A DNA stretch of 59,970 nucleotides from Thermoplasmata archaeon. GTDB lineage: Archaea; Thermoplasmatota; Thermoplasmata; Lutacidiplasmatales; UBA184. The translations under genes and the position numbers were made by a program. Below, piece after piece: positions 2,085-23,018 of the stretch (the stretch's first letter is position 1; every line of letters begins with the position of its first letter). Location: the NCBI GenBank assembly GCA_028864975.1, contig JAGWLG010000021.1:1-59970 (forward strand). Reading direction: 5' to 3'. The notes beneath the pieces were generated by a model that was not told the origin of the DNA, made no database searches, and saw only the letters and a program-made list of their open reading frames with translations.

Positions 2085-5000
2085 GTGCTGACCCAGGGAG
2101 GGGGACCCCGGCCGGGGCGCCCGACGGCCCCCAGGGCCATCGTGCTCATCCTCGCCCTGCTGGCGGTCGGGGCGCCCCTGCTCGTGCTGCATCCCACGAC
2201 GTCCTCCCCAGGGGACCCGTCCGTCACCGCGAGCCCGGTCCTGCCATCTCTTCGGACCACCTCGACCCCCCCGACACCAGGGGCGACACCGGTCTGGAAC
2301 AACCTGACGACGACCGCGGGCACGCCTCCCTCCGCGCGAAGCGACTTCGGCCTCGCCTACGATGCGCGCGACGGCACCACGCTGCTGTTCGGGGGGTCGA
2401 ACGGGCTCCACGAGCTGGGAGATACCTGGACCTTTCACGCCGGCACCTGGCAGAACATCACGGGAGGCCTCGCAAGGGCCCCCGGAGCTCGCTCGGCCTT
2501 CGGTTTGACCTACGACGCGGTCGACCACTACGTGGTGCTCTGGGGAGGATGTTCGGATGTCCTTTGCGACACCTACTGGAGCGACTCCTGGAAGTTCGCG
2601 GGAGGGCAGTGGTGGCCCCTCAACCTTACGACGGCGCCGTCGGGGCGTGCCCACTTCGGCATGACCTGGGACACCCACGACCAGGAGGTCGTGATGTTCG
2701 GGGGCTACCAAAGCGGCGGCGCCACACCGGACGACACGTGGGTCTTCAAAGCGGGTGGATGGAGCGAGGTCTGCGCCACCTCCTGCGGACCCGTTGGACG
2801 CTACGACCTCTCCCTGTCGGACGATCCCTGGGACAGCTCGGCCCTCCTCTTCGGAGGGTACGAGGCGACCAACGGGGACCTGGGCGACACCTGGAGCTTC
2901 GCGGCCGGGACCTGGGCCCAGGTCTCGATGCCCGTCTCGGGGCTTTGCGGGGGCCCGGGTCAGCCGGCCTGCCTGACCGATGCCCCCGCCCCCCGCCACG
3001 CGGCGATGATGGCCCCGGACCCGAACGACGGCGACCTCCTCTTCATCGGTGGAGTGAGCGGCTCGACGACCTTCCCTTATGGGGGAGGAGGCTACTGGAA
3101 CTACCTCACCTCGACGTGGACGAGCGTGGCGGTCACCTCGCCCGACGGGACCTCCGCTGCGAACATGGCCTACGACGGCACCGATGGCTACGAGGTCTTC
3201 TTCGGAGGGGTGAACGCCTCGGGCGTGCTCGTCGCCTACACCTGGACCTTCGGGCCCCCGCCGGCGCAACAGGCGCTCGTCTCCTTTGCCACGGTTCCCT
3301 CCTCCTGTGGGACGATCAAGCTCGGCACCTCCTCCTACACCAACGGCCAGCAGGGCACCTACGCGCTGGGGACCTACCCGGTCTCGGCCACCGCGTGCGC
3401 GGGGTACGCCCTGAAGGGGCTCTCGGCGACGGGGGGGATCACCCTCTGGCCCGGGAACTCGACGGCCTCTGTGGGGTCCGCCGGGTCGATCAGTGCCACC
3501 TTCTCGCTCACGCGCGCTTCCGTGTCCTTCACCGTCGCGCCCTTGGCCTGCGGGGCGATCACGTTCAACGGCACGCCCCAGTCCTCCGGGAGCTCGGGGG
3601 TCTATCCCCTCGCGACCTACGCCGTGAGCGCAGCCGCGTGCCCGAACTTCCTCTTCCAACAGTGGAACGCGACCGGCGGGGTTGCGGTCAGCTCCGCGAC
3701 CTCGGCCAGTACCCAGGCGACGCTCACGGGGACGGGAGGGCTCACCGCGTGGTACGTGTGGAACGGTGGAGGACCGACACGATACACCGTGGCCTTCAGC
3801 ATCTACCCCAGCACGTGTGGGGACCTGACCTTCAACGGAAGCGCTCAGGCCAACGGCACCTCGGCGGGCTTCCCCGCCGCCGCGTACACGGCCGTGGCCC
3901 CCAGCTGTTCGGGCTACAGCTTCCTGACTTGGACCTCCACGGGAGGGCTCGTCGTGGCCACGCCCTCGAACCCGAGCTCGTCGGTCACCGTGAGCGCCTC
4001 CGGGACGCTCGCGGCCAACTTCGCTCCGACCTCGGGGGGCACCCACTACGTCGTCTCCTTCCTGGCGATCCCCACGACCTGCGCCCCCGTGCTCTTCAAC
4101 GGCAGCGCGCAGGCGGCGGGCAGCGCGGGGTCGTACCGCCCGGCGTCCTACACCGCCTCGGCCCTCGCCTGCTCTGGGTACAACTTCGGGAGCTGGTCCG
4201 TGAGCGGGGGCCTCGCCACGGCCTCGTCGACCTCGCCCACGACGACGGTCACGGTCTCGAGCAACGGCTCGCTCTCGGCGGACTACGTGGCCGTCGGGGC
4301 CAACGCGGTCCTTGTGCGGATCGTGCCCGTCGCATGCGGGGCCGTCGTGGTGATCAACGGCCAGGGGTATGCGGACGGAGGGACCGCGTCACTCGTGTCG
4401 GGGACCTACGCGATCGGCGCGTCTCCGTGCCCGGGCTACGAGTTCGAGCAATGGAACACCTCCGGAGGGTTCGCCATCTCCGGTTCCAGCGCGGTGGTCA
4501 GCGGGAGCGGTTCGGTCCAGGCGACCTACGTGCTCCTCCCCACCGTGCAGTTCCAGGCAAACCGTACCTACCTTCGCGCGGGGGGCTCGGTCAGTGTGCT
4601 GGCGCTGCCCGCGCAGGGCGTCGGGCCTTATGCCTGCACCTGGTCGCTCAACGGCACGAACGTCACGACAGGCTGCTCGACCCTCCTGACGTTCAATCAC
4701 ACCGCAACCTACGCGCTCGACCTCTGGGTGGTGGACGCCCATGGGTATGCCGCGCAGGCGCCGTCGCAGGACCTCCACGTCACTCCCGTGCCCGGCCCTG
4801 GCCCGCGGGGTTCGAGCGGCCCCTTGGGTGGGGCGTGGCTCTACCTCGTCGTCCTCGCCGTCGCCGCTGTCCTGATCCTGCTTGCGTTCCTCGTCCTCCG
4901 TCGACGACAAGACGCGAGGCGCCCCCCCCGTGGACCGCGAGGGGCCAACCCGACCGCCCCGGTCCCTTCTCTCGCGGTCTCCATGGAGCCGCCTGCCACC

Positions 5001-6161
5001 TCCCCCACCAGCGCTGGCGAGGAGCCGGGGACCGTGGAGAGGGGGCCCTGGCCCCCACCCGAAGCCTCCCCGACACCGACCCAGGCGAGCGGCCCCGGTC
5101 CTTCTTCCCCTATCTCCGGAGGAAGCTGGGCCCCGATGCCGAGCGGCGCCCCAGTCGTCCCCTCGCGCGACGCACAGGCCCTTGAGGACTTCCTGAACGC
5201 TCCGAAGTCTCCCGCGGCACGTCCTTCGGTCTCGAGCGGGGGTGCGGCCACCCCAGCGGCCGCCGCCACGGTGGCGCCTGCCAGCTCCCCCTCTGCCCTC
5301 CCATCTGTCCCATCCTCCGCCCCTCCCTCCGGAACGCCTGCTTCCCCAAGGGTGACGACCCCCGCGCCGACGGCGACGATGCCCGCCGCCTCGCCAGCGC
5401 CTTCCAAGCTCGAGACGACGAGGCCAGGCCCCTCAGCCGCTGCCGCCGGCACTGCAGCCCCGGCGCGCTCACCTCCCCCCACAACGGCCACCGCGCCCGT
5501 GGTAGGCTCGCCTCCGTCGGAGCCACCTGCGCCGGAGAAGCCCCCGGAACACGACCAGATCCTGGAGGCGCTCGCGGGAGGCTCCCTGCCGCTCTCCGAG
5601 CTCGCGCACCGGCTCCGGGCCGATCCCGAGGAGGTGGCGGCCGCGCTCACGATGCTCGTACGCGACCAATTGGTCCAGCGCCTTTCGTCCACGAGCTCAG
5701 GCTCCGCTCGATATCAGTTGACGCGCAAAGGCATGGTTACGGCCGTGCGTGCCCTGGAACCGGCCCCCAAGGCCTCGCCCTCCTCAGAAGTCCCCTCACC
5801 GTCGCCCCCTTCCGCACCCCCCGTGACGGTTCCCACTCGACCGCCCGCGAGCCCCCCCGCTCCTGCGGTGGTCTCCCCAATCTCCACCGCGACACCCGCC
5901 GCGCTCCCTCCTCCGGGATCCGAGCCCTCCGTGAGCTCGCTCCGTCCGCAGGACGTCAACCCCAACGTCAAGGGAGTTCCTAAGGGAGCCTACACCGCCT
6001 GGTCCGCGAACATCCACGGGGACACGGCGAACGTGACCGAGGTCGGGGGGGACTCGAAGCGCAAGGAAGTGGAGGAGAAGGAGCGCATCCGACGCGTGCT
6101 CGCGGCACGGGAAGAGGAGCGGCGGCGCAGGACGAACGGGGAAGCTCCTCCCGTCGGGTAA
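2085..6161 (+). CDS. Membrane-anchored surface protein: Kelch beta-propeller, Ig/PKD-like repeats, TM helix, Pro-rich tail with winged-HTH-like domain
   Basis: N-terminal hydrophobic signal; repeated PSAR..FGLAYD...LLFGG...DTW Kelch blades; Cys-pair beta repeats; TM WLYLVVLAVAAVLILLAFLVL followed by RRR; wHTH-like segment at about 5548-5735. Confidence 0.8.
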   Translation: MLTQGGGPRPGRPTAPRAIVLILALLAVGAPLLVLHPTTSSPGDPSVTASPVLPSLRTTSTPPTPGATPVWNNLTTTAGTPPSARSDFGLAYDARDGTTLLFGGSNGLHELGDTWTFHAGTWQNITGGLARAPGARSAFGLTYDAVDHYVVLWGGCSDVLCDTYWSDSWKFAGGQWWPLNLTTAPSGRAHFGMTWDTHDQEVVMFGGYQSGGATPDDTWVFKAGGWSEVCATSCGPVGRYDLSLSDDPWDSSALLFGGYEATNGDLGDTWSFAAGTWAQVSMPVSGLCGGPGQPACLTDAPAPRHAAMMAPDPNDGDLLFIGGVSGSTTFPYGGGGYWNYLTSTWTSVAVTSPDGTSAANMAYDGTDGYEVFFGGVNASGVLVAYTWTFGPPPAQQALVSFATVPSSCGTIKLGTSSYTNGQQGTYALGTYPVSATACAGYALKGLSATGGITLWPGNSTASVGSAGSISATFSLTRASVSFTVAPLACGAITFNGTPQSSGSSGVYPLATYAVSAAACPNFLFQQWNATGGVAVSSATSASTQATLTGTGGLTAWYVWNGGGPTRYTVAFSIYPSTCGDLTFNGSAQANGTSAGFPAAAYTAVAPSCSGYSFLTWTSTGGLVVATPSNPSSSVTVSASGTLAANFAPTSGGTHYVVSFLAIPTTCAPVLFNGSAQAAGSAGSYRPASYTASALACSGYNFGSWSVSGGLATASSTSPTTTVTVSSNGSLSADYVAVGANAVLVRIVPVACGAVVVINGQGYADGGTASLVSGTYAIGASPCPGYEFEQWNTSGGFAISGSSAVVSGSGSVQATYVLLPTVQFQANRTYLRAGGSVSVLALPAQGVGPYACTWSLNGTNVTTGCSTLLTFNHTATYALDLWVVDAHGYAAQAPSQDLHVTPVPGPGPRGSSGPLGGAWLYLVVLAVAAVLILLAFLVLRRRQDARRPPRGPRGANPTAPVPSLAVSMEPPATSPTSAGEEPGTVERGPWPPPEASPTPTQASGPGPSSPISGGSWAPMPSGAPVVPSRDAQALEDFLNAPKSPAARPSVSSGGAATPAAAATVAPASSPSALPSVPSSAPPSGTPASPRVTTPAPTATMPAASPAPSKLETTRPGPSAAAAGTAAPARSPPPTTATAPVVGSPPSEPPAPEKPPEHDQILEALAGGSLPLSELAHRLRADPEEVAAALTMLVRDQLVQRLSSTSSGSARYQLTRKGMVTAVRALEPAPKASPSSEVPSPSPPSAPPVTVPTRPPASPPAPAVVSPISTATPAALPPPGSEPSVSSLRPQDVNPNVKGVPKGAYTAWSANIHGDTANVTEVGGDSKRKEVEEKERIRRVLAAREEERRRRTNGEAPPVG

Positions 6162-13948: not shown

Positions 13949-16900
13949 ATGGTCCCCGCTGCGCACGCGCGCTCCCCGCTGGCCGCCCTGACCGCCCTCT
14001 CTACCCTCCCAGTTCGGCGTGCCGTTCGCACGGCCCTATGGGTCCTCGTGGTCATGGTCATGCTCGCGCCGACCTCCTTGGCGCGTCCGGTCCTCCCTTC
14101 CGCGCCGACCGCTCCTTCGGTCGCCCCCTCCGGTCCCCTCGTGGGTGCCGCTTCGGCCTCCCCATCGGGCACCTCCGGGCTTGTCGCGCATTCGGCGCAC
14201 GTCGGAGCCGCGGTAGTGGTCCCAAGCGTGCGAGATGTCCTTCGCGATCACCCCGTCGCTTGTCCGCTCACGCCCCTGCCCGCGCCCTCCTCGGACCTCC
14301 GCACGGGGGTCTCCTCTTCCGTCCCCTCCTCTCTGCCCCTCTCCTTGGTCCCCGCGACCATGCCCTGTCAAGCTCCCACCTCGGCCTCGGGAGGTACCGA
14401 CACGAGCCGTCTGGTTCCCACGACCTCGATTGGTGCGTCCTCGGGGTCGACCCACTTCCAAGGCCACCCGGACACCACGTCCTGGGCGCCGGGTTGGCAG
14501 GGGATCACCAGTGCGTCTTCGGGCTACGTCCCTCCCGATGTGTCCATGGCCGTGGGCCGGACCCAGGTGGTCGAAGCGGTCAATGACGTCATGCAGGTCT
14601 GGGCGAAGAACGGCACCGTCTTGGCCACCCCCTTCAGCTTCAGTACGATCTTCAATGTGGGGAACGCCGCTTACGGCGACCCTCAAGTCCTCTACGACAC
14701 TCGAGGCGGCGGACAGTTCCTCCTCTCGGTCGACGACTTCACCTACGGCACCGTGTGGCTCGGGATCTCCGTGACGAACGACTCCTTGGGCGGCTGGTAC
14801 GTCTACAACCTCACCGCCATCCCGGCGAACGACTTCTTGGACCGCCCTGTGCTAGGGGTCAGCGACACGGTCATCGCCTACGGCGGGAACGTTTTCACCA
14901 ACGTGGGGGGCTTCGTCCAGGCCCAGTGGTTCGCCTGGGACCGTGCGGTGCTCGAGTCCGGGGCCGCAGCCACGGGTTGGTACTGGTACAGCGCGGCCGA
15001 TTCTGCTGTCCACCCGGTGCCCCAGTGGGGAGCGAACACGACCGCTACCCAGTACTACGTCTGCACCACCTGTGGATCCGGGCAAATCCTGGTCTACTGG
15101 GTCCAGTGGGTCCCCGGGGTCAGGGGGCCCTGGCTCAACTCGACGGTCTACAAGTGGCCCGCCCTCACGGCCCCGCCCGACGCGCCGCAACCGGGGACCT
15201 CGACCACCGTCTCGGTCGCCCTGAGCGGCAACCAGGAGATGACCGGGATGTGGGCGAACGGGCTGCTCTACTTCTCCTTCGAGAACTCGTGCTCCGGCCC
15301 TCAGGGATGCCCTTGGTACGTGAGCATCAACACCGCGACGAACACCGTGGTCCAGAACTACAGCTACGCGGGCGCGCCGGGGAACCATGTCTACTACCCG
15401 GCGACCGGCACCGACCTCAACGGCGACCAGCTCATGTTCCATGGTTGGTCCTCGACCTCGGTGTACCCGACGCTCGAGATGCTCTCGCGGAACCGCACCT
15501 ACGCGGCGAACGCCTACGAGGGAGCCAACGAGGTCTACGGGACGGCGTCGGACAGCTACTGCGGTAGCGGGGCGTGCCGTTACGGGGACTACTTCACGGT
15601 CGCTCCCGACCCTGACAACCCCAGCGTCGCCTGGGGCGCCGGGGAGTACATCGTTTCTGGTCTTACGTGGGCCACGTGGATCGGGAGCGTCTCCCAGGGC
15701 GTCGTGCCGCTCGCCCCCCCCACGGCCTCCCCCGCCAAGCTCCACGCCGATGTCGGGGTCCCGGCCAAGGAGACCCTCTCGGACCTCAACAGCCAATGCA
15801 ATATCCGCCAGATCTGGTGGTGCACGGTCCAGTACGACTACGGAGATGGCAGCGCCTACAACGTGACCAGCTGCGCAGGGGCGCTGGCGGGCCTCTACCC
15901 GAACATCCTGAACGAGACCCACACCTACTGGGGCATCGGGAACTACACCGCGGGGGGCGCGAGCAGCTACTGGGACGAGTACTCCGGTGGCGTCTGTGTC
16001 CCAGCCAACTCCCAGGGAGGGAACGCGCTCCCCGAGATCCCCGTGGCGGTCAACAAGGACCCCTTCCTCACCCCGTGGACGCAGAACGCCACCTCCATCG
16101 ATGTGGGGCAGTCGGTGACCTTCAGCTCGTACGCGGCGGGGGGGTGGCCCACGTACACCTTCGCGGCCTACCAGAGCTCCCCCAACTTCGGTTGTAGCGG
16201 ATATGTCTCGGGCAACATGCTCGGGGTCACCTGCGCCCCGACCGCGGCGGGGACCTACCACATCTGGGGCTCCACCACCGACTCCGTCGGCGGGCTCTCG
16301 CCCACGCTCTACGCCCCTGCGGTCGTCGTCTACGGCCGGACCAGCGTCTCGATCGGCTGGAGCGCCACCACGATCGACGTGGGGCAGACCGTGACCGCCA
16401 CGGCGACCGCGTCGGGCGGTACGGGGACCTACACCAGCTACGCTTGGACGCCCTCCTCGGTGAACCTGGGATGCGCGGTTTCCACCACCTCCACGGACGG
16501 CTGCACCCCTACCGCGTCCGGGAGCTACACCATCGGCGCGAAGGTCACCGATAGCAATGGCGGAGTCTCTCCGCTCGCGACGAGCGGGACCCTGACCGTC
16601 GATTCCGCCGTCACCGCGAGCACCCCCGCCCCCAACAAGTGGTCCGTGGACGTCGGAGGGACCGTGACCTTCTCGACCACGCCCGGCGGCGGCTCCGGGA
16701 CCTACTCGAGCTACAGCTGGACCCCCTCCTCCACGAACTTGGGGTGCGCCACCTCCACCACCGCGTCGATCACCTGTATTCCCACCGCGGCGGGGAGCTT
16801 CACGGTCTCCGTCACGGTGACGGACTCGAACGGAGGGACCGCTACCTCCACCTCGGCCTCCTACACCGTCTTCGCGGTGCCCACCGCCACGACCCCGAGC

Positions 16901-19033
16901 GCGAACTTGACCTCGGTGGACATGGGGCAGGGGGTCACCTTCTCCACGACCGTCTCGGGCGGCTCCGGGGGTACGACGATCTCCTGGTCCGGCCTCACCA
17001 CGATCGGGTGCGCCTCGTCGAACATCTCCCTGCTCGCGTGCGTTCCGACGATCGCGGCCACGTCCACGATCACGGCGACGGTCACCGACAGCAACGGAGG
17101 GACCTCGACGAGCGCGAGCTTCTCGTTCACGGTCTACGCGGACCCAACGGCCTCCACCCCCGTTGCGACCCCCTCGACCGTGGAAGCGGGTCAGGCCACC
17201 TCCTTCGCGACGACCGCGAGCGGAGGCCACGGGACCTACAGCTACTATTGGTCGGGGCTCCCCACCGGCTGCTCGACCTCTAACGTGGACCCGCTCCCCT
17301 GCACGCCCAGCGCGGCCGGGACGAGCTCCGTCGCGGTCACGGTGATCGACGGGAACGGTTACCCTGTCCTCTCCTCCGCGCTCTCCTTCACGGTGAGCGC
17401 CGGTCCCTCGGTCACGACCCCGACGGCGACCCCCGCGGCCGTCGACGTGGGGCAGGGGACCACCCTCGCGGTGACGGCCTCCGGCGGCTCGGGCTCGTAC
17501 ACCTACGCATGGTCCGGCCTCCCCCCCGGCTGCAGCTCGTCCGCGACCTCGTTCATGTGCACCCCGACGGCGGCGGGGACGTTCCACGTCGGGATGAACA
17601 TCACGGACTCGGTGGGCGGCGCGAGCAAGAGCGGGCTCCTGACCCTCGTCGTGTCGCCCGCCCTGACGGTCCCGACCCCCTCGGTCGCCCCCTACCTGGT
17701 CGATGTCGGCGTCGCCGCGACGCTGACCTCCGCGGTCGGTGGAGGGGCCGGCGGGAACACCTACACCTGGTCCGGCCTCCCCTCCGGTTGCACCGGGGCC
17801 AACGCGGCCACGACCCCCTGCACGCCCTCGGCGGCGGGGGCCGCCTCGGTCACCCTCAAGGTCGTCGACGCGAACGGCTGGAGCGTGACGAGCGCCGCCT
17901 TCTCCTGGAACGTTCTCGCCGCTCCGACGCTTTCGACGCCTACCGGTAGCCCGAACCCCGTGACCGTCGGCGCCTCGCTGAGGATCTCTACGACGGCGAC
18001 CGTGGCCGCCCCCTGGGCCACCTACAGCTGGACCAGCCTCCCGACAGGGTGCACCGCCTCCAACGCGACCTCGATCACGTGCACTCCGACAGCCGCCGGG
18101 ACCTTCGCGACGAAGGTCTCGGTGGTCGACGGGGGCCATGGGAGCGCGACCAGTTCGGCGGCGTCGCTCGTGGTCAACCCCTCAGGGTCGGGCGGTCTCA
18201 CGGTGGGCCTCGTGGCGAGCCCCGCCACCCTCTACACAGGACAGACCACGACGCTCACCGGGACGGTCAGCGGCGGGAGCGCCCCTTACACCTACAGCTG
18301 GACCGGCCTCCCCGGCGGTTGCTCGAGCGCCAACACCGCGACCCTCTCGTGCACCCCGACCGCGTCGGGGACGGTCTCGGTGACCCTTTCCGTGACCGAC
18401 ACCGCAGGCCACTCAGGCTCCGCGAGCGCGTCCCTGACGGTCACCGCCTCTTCCGGGACCTTGACCGTCTCGCTCTCCGCGAGCCCGACGACGGTCACCA
18501 TAGGACAGTCGTCCGCCTTGACCGCGACGGTCAGCGCCGGGACGGCCCCGTACACCTACACCTGGACGGGGCTTCCGAGCGGCTGTTCGAGCTCGAACTC
18601 CGCGACCCTGTCGTGCGCCCCGGCCGCCTCCGGCACGTTCACCATCCACGTGAACGTGGCCGATAGCGCCGGCAAGTCAGGGTCGGCCCAGACCACGCTC
18701 ACGGTGAACCCCGGCCCCACCGCGGGCGGCAGCGGGGCTAACGTCTTCACCAACCCGTACCTCATTGTGGGCCTGATCGTGGCCGTCGTGGCGGTCCTCC
18801 TCCTGGTGCTCCTCCTGCGCAAGAAGAGACCCAAGCCGGCGGCGGCTCCCGAGCCGGCTCCTGCAGTCGGCGCGGCGGCCCCCTCCGCGGATGTCGCGGC
18901 GAGCCCGCCCCCCCCGCCCGCGCCCTCCCCTCCACCTCCTCCGGCGAGCCCTCCTGCCGAAGCTCCTCCTCCGCCGCCCGCGCCGGCGATGGGGGAGCCC
19001 CCCGCGCCGTGGCCGCCGCCCCCCATGGGATAG
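13949..19033 (+). CDS. Large membrane-anchored surface protein (beta-propeller-like head, PKD/Ig-like repeats, TM, Pro-rich tail)
   Basis: Signal-like hydrophobic segment; head domain with PPDVSMAVG...RYGDY motifs; about 10 repeats of DVGQ..TF..TASGG.G.Y.Y.WSGLP.GC; TM YLIVGLIVAVVAVLLLVLLL followed by RKKR. Confidence 0.85.
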   Translation: MVPAAHARSPLAALTALSTLPVRRAVRTALWVLVVMVMLAPTSLARPVLPSAPTAPSVAPSGPLVGAASASPSGTSGLVAHSAHVGAAVVVPSVRDVLRDHPVACPLTPLPAPSSDLRTGVSSSVPSSLPLSLVPATMPCQAPTSASGGTDTSRLVPTTSIGASSGSTHFQGHPDTTSWAPGWQGITSASSGYVPPDVSMAVGRTQVVEAVNDVMQVWAKNGTVLATPFSFSTIFNVGNAAYGDPQVLYDTRGGGQFLLSVDDFTYGTVWLGISVTNDSLGGWYVYNLTAIPANDFLDRPVLGVSDTVIAYGGNVFTNVGGFVQAQWFAWDRAVLESGAAATGWYWYSAADSAVHPVPQWGANTTATQYYVCTTCGSGQILVYWVQWVPGVRGPWLNSTVYKWPALTAPPDAPQPGTSTTVSVALSGNQEMTGMWANGLLYFSFENSCSGPQGCPWYVSINTATNTVVQNYSYAGAPGNHVYYPATGTDLNGDQLMFHGWSSTSVYPTLEMLSRNRTYAANAYEGANEVYGTASDSYCGSGACRYGDYFTVAPDPDNPSVAWGAGEYIVSGLTWATWIGSVSQGVVPLAPPTASPAKLHADVGVPAKETLSDLNSQCNIRQIWWCTVQYDYGDGSAYNVTSCAGALAGLYPNILNETHTYWGIGNYTAGGASSYWDEYSGGVCVPANSQGGNALPEIPVAVNKDPFLTPWTQNATSIDVGQSVTFSSYAAGGWPTYTFAAYQSSPNFGCSGYVSGNMLGVTCAPTAAGTYHIWGSTTDSVGGLSPTLYAPAVVVYGRTSVSIGWSATTIDVGQTVTATATASGGTGTYTSYAWTPSSVNLGCAVSTTSTDGCTPTASGSYTIGAKVTDSNGGVSPLATSGTLTVDSAVTASTPAPNKWSVDVGGTVTFSTTPGGGSGTYSSYSWTPSSTNLGCATSTTASITCIPTAAGSFTVSVTVTDSNGGTATSTSASYTVFAVPTATTPSANLTSVDMGQGVTFSTTVSGGSGGTTISWSGLTTIGCASSNISLLACVPTIAATSTITATVTDSNGGTSTSASFSFTVYADPTASTPVATPSTVEAGQATSFATTASGGHGTYSYYWSGLPTGCSTSNVDPLPCTPSAAGTSSVAVTVIDGNGYPVLSSALSFTVSAGPSVTTPTATPAAVDVGQGTTLAVTASGGSGSYTYAWSGLPPGCSSSATSFMCTPTAAGTFHVGMNITDSVGGASKSGLLTLVVSPALTVPTPSVAPYLVDVGVAATLTSAVGGGAGGNTYTWSGLPSGCTGANAATTPCTPSAAGAASVTLKVVDANGWSVTSAAFSWNVLAAPTLSTPTGSPNPVTVGASLRISTTATVAAPWATYSWTSLPTGCTASNATSITCTPTAAGTFATKVSVVDGGHGSATSSAASLVVNPSGSGGLTVGLVASPATLYTGQTTTLTGTVSGGSAPYTYSWTGLPGGCSSANTATLSCTPTASGTVSVTLSVTDTAGHSGSASASLTVTASSGTLTVSLSASPTTVTIGQSSALTATVSAGTAPYTYTWTGLPSGCSSSNSATLSCAPAASGTFTIHVNVADSAGKSGSAQTTLTVNPGPTAGGSGANVFTNPYLIVGLIVAVVAVLLLVLLLRKKRPKPAAAPEPAPAVGAAAPSADVAASPPPPPAPSPPPPPASPPAEAPPPPPAPAMGEPPAPWPPPPMG

Positions 19034-21762: not shown

Positions 21763-22878
21763 CTACCACCGGAGCATCGCGGCGAGGCCGCCGTAGCCCT
21801 TGAGCAGGGCCCTCCCCTCGTCCGTGGCCGAGGAGATGAGGTGGGCCTTGGCCCCCGCGGCCTCCGCCTGGGCCACGAGCTCGGGGGCATCGTCACGGTC
21901 CTCGGAGATCAGCAGCGCGTCGACGCGACCCGAGGAGAGAGCCTCCTTCACCTGGGACTCTCCATAGGTGGCTTTCGAGCCGGTCCGGACCTCGGTCAAG
22001 AAGCGGCCCAGGACGGCCTTCTCTCTCGCCATCGCCATGTCCTGCCGCGTCTGCGAGGCGGCCTCCGAGAGCTCCTTGAGACCGTGCTCGTTGGTGTACC
22101 CTGTGGAGAAGAGGGGGGTCACGATCTTCTGCCGGATCCGGTAGTCGAGCTCCCCGCGCTCCACGAAGTCCTCCTTCATCGCCCCAGGCCCCCCCACGAA
22201 GACCCCGAGGACGTTGTCGATCTCGGAGAGGAAGATGCGGTTCGACCGCTCACCGACCTTCCTCAACCAACCGAGGGTCTCGCCTTCCATGATGCGCTGG
22301 AAGCGCTGCGCACTCTGTCCACCCATGTGGTGCTTTCCCATGAGATTACTTTCGAAAGAGTCGACTTCAGCGATTCTAGTCCCACGGAGCCATCCAAAAC
22401 TGGCCTCGGCTCGATCCATGACGATGAGACCGTACACCTCCGGGTCGCGCGCCATCGCCTCCAGGGGGTCGAGCACGAAACCGGAGCCGCACCGGTAGAG
22501 GTAGGTCTGGACCGGGTCAGGGGGTTCGATAATGATCTCCTCGTCCCCTCCCACGAAACAAGCGAGACCGTGAGGAGGGGTCTCCTTGAACTGACGGAGG
22601 AGCGAGGTGAGCCGACCTAGCGCGGTCGTGATCGCGGTTCGGGTCTGGCGGCTCTTGACGTTCTCGGCCTGGACCGCTTCCGACTGGATGCGGGCCGTCG
22701 CATCCTCGACGCGTCGGCTGGGCGGCACGTAGAGCGTGACCATCTCGTTCGGACGGCCCTTGACCTCGGAGAGGTGCTTCAGCAACCGTCGAAGACGGAG
22801 ACGAGAAGCCTCAGGGGTCGTCCCGGCCCCGCCGAGTCAGTCGGAAGGAGCGGGGGCGGAGGAAGAGTTTGTCGGCAT
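21763..22878 (-). CDS. prf1: Class-1 peptide chain release factor aRF1 (eRF1 family), with an in-frame TGA at codon 14 if the SD-linked ATG is used
   Basis: GGQ in HHMGGQSAQRFQR, NIKS-like NVKS, YxCxxxF as YRCGSGF, LYVPP. ATG 22878 is preceded by GGTGA and is in frame; TGA at 22837-22839. The product call is strong, the start is uncertain (ORF-track start is TTG 22785). Confidence 0.85.
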
Positions 22879-22881
22879 GGT

Positions 22882-22897
22882 TCACCGGGTCGGGTGA
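22882..22897 (-). promoter_or_regulatory. Shine-Dalgarno GGTGA within a 5-bp TCACC/GGTGA hairpin upstream of aRF1
   Basis: Minus strand reads ...gTCACC-cgaccc-GGTGA-acc-ATG. Confidence 0.45.
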
Positions 22898-23018
22898 CGG
22901 AAGGAGGAGCCAGAGTATTTCTCCGTTCGGGAGCGATCGTCACGCGCCGCCGGGGGGCCCCGGTCCTTCGCCGGGGCAGGGGTCGGGATCCTAGCCCCTC
23001 GGGCGAGCGAGACCCGAA

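Follow-up and report, generated by a model that had tools for sequence, protein, structure and literature searches.

The stretch analysed here (the window) comprises 59,970 nucleotides (nt) of contig JAGWLG010000021.1 from a Thermoplasmata archaeon (genome G000; assembly 89.6% complete, 67.4% G+C). It carries on its minus strand a gene for the archaeal release factor aRF1, which is interrupted close to its 5' end by an in-frame stop codon. All coordinates are positions in the window unless another contig is named. Read from the sequence, the locus begins with a Shine-Dalgarno-like GGTGA (22886-22882), which is separated by ACC from an ATG (22878-22876). This ATG and 12 further sense codons (22878-22840, MPTNSSSAPAPSD) form a leader in the aRF1 frame, which ends at codon 14 with a TGA (22839-22837), the proposed recoding site. 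The stop is directly followed by a CTC leucine codon (22836-22834) and by 16 sense codons (22833-22786), which contain no ATG, GTG or TTG and encode GGAGTT and the first ten residues of helix α1 (PEASRLRLRR). The next codon, TTG (22785-22783), is the start picked by a mechanical open reading frame (ORF) call and is most likely an internal leucine codon. The frame then stays open through the body of the gene (22782-21766) to a TAG (21765-21763), its normal stop. This layout is exactly as an earlier sequence-only reading had described it, down to the absence of any start codon between the TGA and the TTG.

The protein encoded downstream of the TGA is an aRF1. A profile search with TIGR03676 gives 334 bits against a cut-off of 235 bits, and the Pfam domains eRF1_1, eRF1_2 and eRF1_3 are found in this order, all above their cut-offs. 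The catalytic GGQ motif, invariant across an alignment of the related genes described below, lies inside KHxxGGQS. Of the two stop-recognition motifs, the NIKS-type one takes the form NVKS here, NIKS being the usual form in the clade, and YRCGSGF fits the YxCxxxF pattern. An AlphaFold model of the protein counted from the CTC codon has a mean predicted local distance difference test score (pLDDT) of 85.6. The canonical architecture is not complete, as TIGR03676 profile positions ~315-356 are absent from the protein. The alignment shows that the entire clade, together with a related viral gene (L043), is missing a ~48-residue insert of the C-domain, which carries a CxxC...CxxC zinc ribbon, and a ~10-residue loop of the N-domain. 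The missing insert makes this protein a short aRF1 variant that is still a member of the family. An exhaustive protein search returned a large and diverse set of short aRF1 proteins (~345-370 residues, e.g. P0122-P0139, P0170, P0223, P0252 and P0256) without the zinc-ribbon insert of the C-domain. Several of these database entries are truncated at the N-terminus and may hide more interrupted genes. The genomic context of one of them, P0122, was examined, and it consists of a run of small same-strand ORFs without family matches.

The in-frame stop is not peculiar to this contig. Eleven distinct genes of this type were compared (the window gene, L003, L032, L033, L034, L036, L038, L040, L041, L042 and L218), whose products are 44-100% identical to the window protein. 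All eleven share one layout, in which an in-frame ATG is followed by 4-32 further sense codons, an in-frame stop and CTC or CTG, and the ATG, the stop and the aRF1 body lie in a single frame in each of them. The stop is TGA in eight genes and TAG in three (L036, L038 and L218). The codon after it is CTC in ten genes and CTG in the eleventh, so that the +4 C and +5 U are invariant and the +6 C is present in 10/11, and the base preceding the stop is C in nine of the ten genes scored. The leaders have dissimilar sequences and lengths of 5, 7, 9, 13, 15, 16 or 33 codons, and the frame is kept in every gene. In G003, the closest genome (same genus, 78% protein identity, ~88% complete), the leader reads ATG TCA CCT GAC GCC TGA CTC and stands at the same place. 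The remaining 350-360 codons are intact in these diverged genes. A scan of genome contigs for further members of the clade yielded G003 as the only close relative, and among the metagenome matches listed there was no clade contig beyond those already known. The database entries of the clade start at an internal Met or Val and are 14 to ~60 N-terminal residues short; a practical consequence is that gene callers truncate such stop-interrupted genes.

An early in-frame stop resembles a fresh nonsense mutation, and a pseudogene or an assembly error is one possible account of it. The stretch is, however, letter-identical in separately assembled contigs of four public runs, which belong to two studies (mine drainage and soil metagenomes), and all of these contigs keep the TGA. 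Some of these runs may be the source sample, and the comparison across species is the stronger control: the same in-frame stop is found at the same place in ten further distinct homologues from other assemblies, so it is neither a chance event nor an error. As the stop is preserved in 11 diverged and otherwise intact genes, and as the interrupted gene is the only aRF1 found in two genomes, the probability that this is a pseudogene or an artefact is practically negligible. The stop codon is genuine and has been conserved.

The codons between the stop and the TTG are translated as protein. The TIGR03676 profile aligns from its position 3 at window position 22800, that is, 5' of the TTG, which bears out the claim of the sequence-only reading that aRF1 homology begins upstream of this codon. 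The N-termini of 28 canonical aRF1 relatives consist of Met, 3-12 residues and a DPQLxRYxFRR-like motif that runs into LLEEI...GRGTELITLYVPP, and the window segment PEASRLRLRR-LLKHL aligns with this DPQLxRYxFRR motif. Over the 17 codons from the stop to the TTG, the four closest genes differ at 6-7 codons synonymously and at 1-3 codons by an amino-acid change. In the AlphaFold model, helix α1 spans residues 8-24 counted from CTC, and the TTG codes for residue 18. The excess of synonymous differences, the homology to the canonical N-terminus, the profile alignment and the predicted helix all argue that this region is coding. The post-stop codons are under selection at the protein level and, according to the model, form most of helix α1.

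This evidence also bears on the possibility that the ORF call is right, that aRF1 starts at the TTG at 22785 and that the ATG...TGA before it belongs to an unrelated short ORF or to non-coding DNA. A TTG can legitimately serve as a start codon, and the resulting 340-residue aRF1 would still pass the family cut-off. Against this, the TTG is not conserved (it is replaced by GCG, CTG or CTT in the three nearest relatives, so that these orthologues do not start there), no Shine-Dalgarno motif precedes it, and the preceding 17 codons show protein-level evolution and fit the profile of the family. A start at the TTG would moreover remove 10 of the 17 residues of helix α1 in the AlphaFold model. We consider such a start highly improbable.

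If the TTG is an internal codon, the question is where translation begins. When the 11 genes are aligned on the leader ATG, the A/T content peaks at positions -30 to -23, with A or T in 11/11 genes at both -27 and -24. The best AT-rich heptamer falls within -30 to -22 in eight of the ten other members (TAAGTAG, TTATATC, TTAAATA, AAATACT, TATATAC etc.); it is further upstream in L038 and located at -24 to -18 in L042. An A/T box at this distance is where the archaeal TATA element is found for a transcript that starts at the ATG itself. The pattern therefore points to leaderless mRNAs in most members, with the leader ATG as the sole possible start. In G000, the candidate TATA box (AAATACT, 22914-22920, minus strand) is an AT-rich heptamer that lies 36-42 nt 5' of the leader ATG (-42 to -36), which would imply a 5' untranslated region (UTR) of about 10-12 nt. 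This position and the GGTGA motif (22882-22886), which ends 3 nt upstream of the ATG, suggest a short 5' leader with a Shine-Dalgarno motif rather than a leaderless mRNA in this species; the motif is weak evidence when taken alone and is not conserved among the other members.

No canonical start codon replaces the leader ATG further downstream. Between the stop and the conserved helix, ATG, GTG and TTG are all absent from eight of the eleven genes, the exceptions being G000 (the TTG, within the helix), L040 (GTG) and L218 (ATG right after the CTC). In L041 and L042, no canonical start is met in frame until after the conserved TLYVPP strand. A non-AUG start at an in-frame ACG was considered as a candidate and rejected, as this codon is present in five members and missing from the rest.

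These observations do not favour a scheme in which the leader is a separate mini-ORF, on which the ribosome terminates and then restarts at CUC or at a nearby non-AUG codon (termination-reinitiation or 'stop-carry-on'), making aRF1 without the leader residues. Several features do agree with it. The codon after the stop is nearly invariant (CTC in 10/11), as a restart site might be, the ACG is conserved in as many as five members, and TAG CTC ATG in L218 has the spacing of classic translational coupling. On the other side, eight of the eleven members offer no ATG, GTG or TTG from the stop to the helix, and no near-cognate start codon in this interval is common to all clade members. CUC matches AUG at one position only, and we know of no initiation at CUC. 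Restart would also mean that more aRF1 is made when termination is efficient, a positive feedback that would be odd for a homeostatic factor. Restart after termination is thus unlikely. L218 differs from the other genes in its leader (L218:728-829), a 33-codon Cys-rich sequence with a zinc-ribbon-like CxxC...CxxC...C pattern; after it come TAG CTC and, directly, the ATG. It may represent an intermediate form or else encode a small protein that is coupled to aRF1.

The sequence around the stop looks like that of a poor terminator. For eRF1-type factors, a C at +4 and the sequence C-U-N after the stop are classic weak contexts; these rules come from eukaryotes and are not measurements on aRF1. 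At the ends of 874 trusted genes of G000, the +4 base is G in 48% and C in 24% of cases, although C accounts for 34% of all bases in the genome. CTC comes directly after the stop at only 8 of these 874 ends, compared to ~25 expected from the trinucleotide frequency, which is a roughly threefold depletion. The genome thus avoids at its real gene ends the very context that the interrupted gene keeps. When folded one by one, roughly half of the sequences are predicted to form a small hairpin that starts 7-11 nt 3' of the stop, and none is found in L034 and L041. In the window gene, the possible hairpin (22812-22825, minus strand) begins 11 nt after the stop and would have a 4-bp stem and a 6-nt loop. 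Elsewhere in G000, a stop followed by CTC with coding-like sequence beyond it in the same frame was found at two sites only, a TGA CTC on the minus strand of contig C29 (259 codons beyond the stop, coding score 0.39) and a TAG CTC on the plus strand of contig C39 (offset 8340). These may be same-frame neighbouring genes or further readthrough candidates.

The codon on the 5' side of the stop is, by comparison, variable (GAC, GCC, GTC, CTC, AGC, GAA, TAC or CCG), so there is no slippery codon, and no conserved G-rich motif upstream of the stop was seen in the clade comparison. A frameshift model was rejected, as the site has no stop in another frame. The variability of the last leader codon bears as well on hopping, in which the peptidyl-tRNA would leave this codon and re-pair beyond the stop with no residue inserted. 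Low-level hops over stops are known in E. coli, and leucine codons flank the stop in three members (CTC TGA CTC in L034 and L041, CTC TGA CTG in L040). The last leader codons of the other eight genes (GAC, GCC, GTC, GTC, AGC, GAA, TAC and CCG), including the GAC of G000, cannot re-pair with CUC, which makes hopping very unlikely.

The relatives of the window gene revealed an unexpected genomic context. A maximum-likelihood tree unites the eleven interrupted genes in one group. Together with L043, the aRF1 of a viral contig from IMG/VR, they form a clade with a long stem and a Shimodaira-Hasegawa-like approximate likelihood-ratio test (SH-aLRT) support of 100; its sister group consists of the canonical aRF1 genes found in the same family, including those of the same-genus species G001 and G002. 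L043 has an ordinary ATG start and adjoins a major head protein, homing endonucleases and 14 tRNA genes. Four of the interrupted genes (L036, L040, L041 and L042) are found inside arrays of 5-12 tRNA genes among ORFs without a family match, and L041 additionally has an integrase. The metagenome-assembled genome GCA_009712145.1 carries two different interrupted copies. The interrupted type of aRF1 is thus probably borne by viruses or mobile elements. Other searches returned little: out of 15 flanking ORFs of the clade loci, 14 had no match in PHROGs and one had a marginal match to a family of unknown function; a terminase family search of the IMG/VR record (~47% complete) gave nothing; and no capsid or terminase gene was found beside the interrupted copies, the major head protein being seen only at L043. 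The neighbours of the gene in G000 are of cellular type (NUDIX, CBS, PAC2, GYD, PIN and giant surface proteins), and its codon usage is host-like (0.34 versus a genome mean of 0.33). The tRNA arrays around the short aRF1 genes (L036, L040, L041, L042 and L043) contain 5-14 genes within 3 kb. Pairs of tRNA-Gln(CUG) and tRNA-Gln(UUG) lie just 5' of the gene in L040 and L041, and a tRNA-Trp(CCA) lies 5' of it in L042; these are near-cognate readers of UAG and UGA, respectively.

The tRNA arrays call for a closer look at the idea that the stop is decoded by a dedicated system (selenocysteine, pyrrolysine, a suppressor tRNA or a changed code), either in the organism itself or in the elements that carry the gene. 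Four element-borne copies do sit in such arrays, and recoded phages are known to carry release factors. The TGA of G000 is, nevertheless, not a sense codon. The 874 trusted long ORFs of this genome end in TGA in 562 cases, in TAG in 262 and in TAA in 50, and coding-like sequence continues in frame after only 5 of 559 TGA ends; this agrees with the earlier remark that TGA ends other genes and that reassignment is unlikely. ARAGORN detects no tRNA with a UCA, CUA or UUA anticodon and no tRNA-Sec (selenocysteine) or tRNA-Pyl (pyrrolysine) in the 89.6% complete assembly, SepSecS was not found in G000, and a search for PylS gave only weak matches to other synthetases, none over the cut-off. The tRNAs of the arrays likewise include no suppressor anticodon. 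Standard-code ORFs cover 0.81-0.94 of the element loci, the stop-to-stop test being crude in such short GC-rich loci. The presence of TGA in some members and TAG in others, together with the normal use of TGA as a stop in G000, rules out code reassignment, selenocysteine and pyrrolysine as general explanations. The use of two different stops at the same site also makes codon-specific decoding unlikely, and overall we regard a dedicated system as extremely unlikely. Genome-wide, coding-like in-frame sequence is more common after TAG (13/260) than after TGA (5/559) in G000. We would guess that the start of the following gene often overlaps a TGA stop (ATGA or GTGA) and that this gene is then out of frame.

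The occurrence of TGA in eight genes and TAG in three fits an omnipotent aRF1 as the factor that acts at this site, as opposed to a codon-specific decoding system. We think it likely, on the strength of the sequence comparisons, that this is a working aRF1 gene expressed by programmed stop-codon readthrough, which would give negative feedback. Translation would start at the ATG at 22878, the counterpart of which would open a leaderless mRNA in most relatives. Having read 13 codons, the ribosome would meet a UGA in a poor termination context, with a C before it, CUC after it and perhaps a small hairpin further downstream. With aRF1 plentiful, the 13-residue peptide would be released and no aRF1 made. 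With aRF1 scarce, the stop would wait for recognition until a near-cognate tRNA had time to decode it, and the ribosome would continue in the same frame through 357 aRF1 codons to give a protein of ~371 residues. By this route, aRF1 would repress its own synthesis and exert homeostatic negative feedback on termination capacity. The sequence-only reading had proposed such readthrough autoregulation for the window gene alone. When checked against the refuting conditions which that reading had named, independent assemblies showed no sense codon at the site, and orthologues were found neither to lack the stop nor to start at the TTG. Three points go beyond it: a CUC or CUG after every stop, the link of this type of gene to viruses or mobile elements, and its displacement of the canonical aRF1 in G000. 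The comparison of the clade, in which 11/11 genes keep the stop and the codons after it show coding-like conservation, lends support to this proposal; readthrough and negative feedback themselves we continue to infer, as we do the decoding by near-cognate tRNAs, its efficiency and its dependence on the level of aRF1.

Several points weigh against this interpretation. To our knowledge, programmed near-cognate readthrough has not been shown in archaea outside the selenocysteine and pyrrolysine systems, and for an essential factor, readthrough would have to be fairly efficient. The clade does not show the 3' hairpin consistently: its energies are not significant overall, and no covariation has been shown. 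The ATG directly after CTC in L218 would permit ordinary coupled initiation in that gene. With assemblies that are 89.6% (G000) and ~88% (G003) complete, a second aRF1 could lie in unassembled DNA, although the ancestral aRF1 locus described below is intact and empty in both genomes. None of the public runs listed as carrying the stretch is an RNA run.

Autoregulation of a release factor by recoding is a textbook case in bacteria, where the prfB gene of RF2 carries CUU UGA C at codon 26 in E. coli. As is proposed for the gene described here, an early stop is recognised by the gene's own product, scarcity of which raises its synthesis, and in both cases a C follows the stop and makes the context weak. 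Unlike the Thermoplasmata gene, which stays in the same frame and needs no shift, prfB depends on a +1 frameshift at a slippery CUU with an upstream Shine-Dalgarno-like stimulator. In addition, either UGA or UAG is used here, and the aRF1/eRF1 family is unrelated to RF2. The interrupted aRF1 would be prfB-like in its logic without being a member of the +1 frameshift mechanism. Also comparable are the 'type II' readthrough contexts of eukaryotes and their viruses (UGA CUA G, UGA CGG and the UGA C of Sindbis virus). They share with the present site a stop followed by C-U-N, with the leakiest +4 base for eRF1-type factors, and some have a structure ~8 nt downstream. The differences are that the +6 base here is C and not A, that UAG is used as well, and that the factor is an aRF1 working on an archaeal ribosome. 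We know of no measurement of stop-context effects for aRF1 on archaeal ribosomes.

Two further systems concern factors of the same family. The eRF1-like genes of Mimivirus (R726) and Megavirus (mg280) contain internal stops, one passed by a frameshift and one by readthrough, and autoregulation was proposed for them; according to the same paper, cellular homologues in archaea and eukaryotes lack such mechanisms (PMC3521657). They resemble the genes described here in being virus-associated class-I factors with internal stops among other virus-encoded translation components. They differ in that their hosts are amoebae and not archaea, and here a single in-frame stop is located in a short N-terminal leader. 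Plants regulate eRF1-1 by a combination of readthrough and nonsense-mediated decay (PMC5397192). There too, the level of an omnipotent factor is sensed through termination at a stop in its own mRNA. This stop is, however, the normal one at the end of the ORF, and the output is mRNA decay via a 3' UTR intron, whereas in the Thermoplasmata genes the stop precedes the body, so that no protein would be made unless it is read through. Release factors receive no more than brief mention in a 2021 review of recoding in archaea, which contains no case of a release-factor gene subject to recoding (PMC8211752). Our literature searches of open-access papers and preprints likewise found no interrupted aRF1 in archaea or archaeal viruses, and the author of the sequence-only reading knew of no such description in archaea.

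The genomes G000 and G003 differ from their relatives in one more respect. Profile searches of both find the interrupted aRF1 as the only aRF1, plus a weaker match (27% identity), which we take to be pelota. The neighbours of the canonical aRF1 gene in G001 and G002 are a thioredoxin (trx) gene on one side and a tRNA-Arg(CCU) gene on the other. As regards DISPLACEMENT of the canonical gene, this ancestral trx-aRF1-tRNA-Arg locus is contiguous but without aRF1 in both G000 and G003. It lies on contig C32 of G000, where an opposite-strand GNAT acetyltransferase gene (C32:126511-127599, minus strand; locus L213:1012-2100) occupies the place of aRF1 and no aRF1 remnant is present. In G003, a partial tRNA copy of 31 nt begins within ~170 nt of the thioredoxin gene; beyond it come an insert of ~4.9 kb, which encodes a tyrosine integrase, and then the complete tRNA. 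This insert between the partial and the full tRNA-Arg copies (L219, G003 contig C3:48900-54400) looks like a small integrated element at the site from which the canonical aRF1 was lost. The interrupted gene itself is found at another locus in G003 than in G000. Since no other aRF1 was found and genes end in all three stops, both species appear, judging from their assemblies, to depend on the interrupted aRF1 for all termination. A GNAT gene is also found 5' of the interrupted aRF1 in L034 and L035, perhaps by coincidence.

We infer that this type of gene came from viruses or mobile elements of Thermoplasmata and replaced the canonical aRF1 in the species of the window and in its nearest relative. 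Combined with the mechanism outlined above, this leads to a broader and more tentative picture, which we put at somewhat less than an even chance: a virus- or mobile-element-borne lineage of Thermoplasmata aRF1 would sense the efficiency of termination via a leaderless, leaky stop-CUC and, in at least two species, would have displaced the canonical aRF1 and come to run all termination.

If true, this would be the first programmed near-cognate readthrough and the first release-factor autoregulation shown in Archaea, with the same feedback logic evolved convergently via a different mechanism. It would also mean that the mobilome had supplied the replacement for a core translation factor: viruses or mobile elements of archaea would carry, beside their tRNA arrays, a tunable termination factor able to take over from the host gene. 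The leader with its stop would then constitute a conserved leaky-stop cassette of natural origin, in frame and functional with a factor of the aRF1 type, and would offer a direct route to stop-context effects and near-cognate decoding on archaeal ribosomes.

The window contains three giant surface proteins. The largest is encoded directly 5' of aRF1 on the same strand by a single ORF of 7338 residues (23019-45035, minus strand). It is a highly repetitive Ser/Thr/Gly-rich protein of surface type that has a membrane anchor at its C-terminus and also a zinc-ribbon-like tail. Of the other two, the one encoded at 2085-6161 has Kelch repeats, and the one encoded at 13949-19033 has PKD domains.

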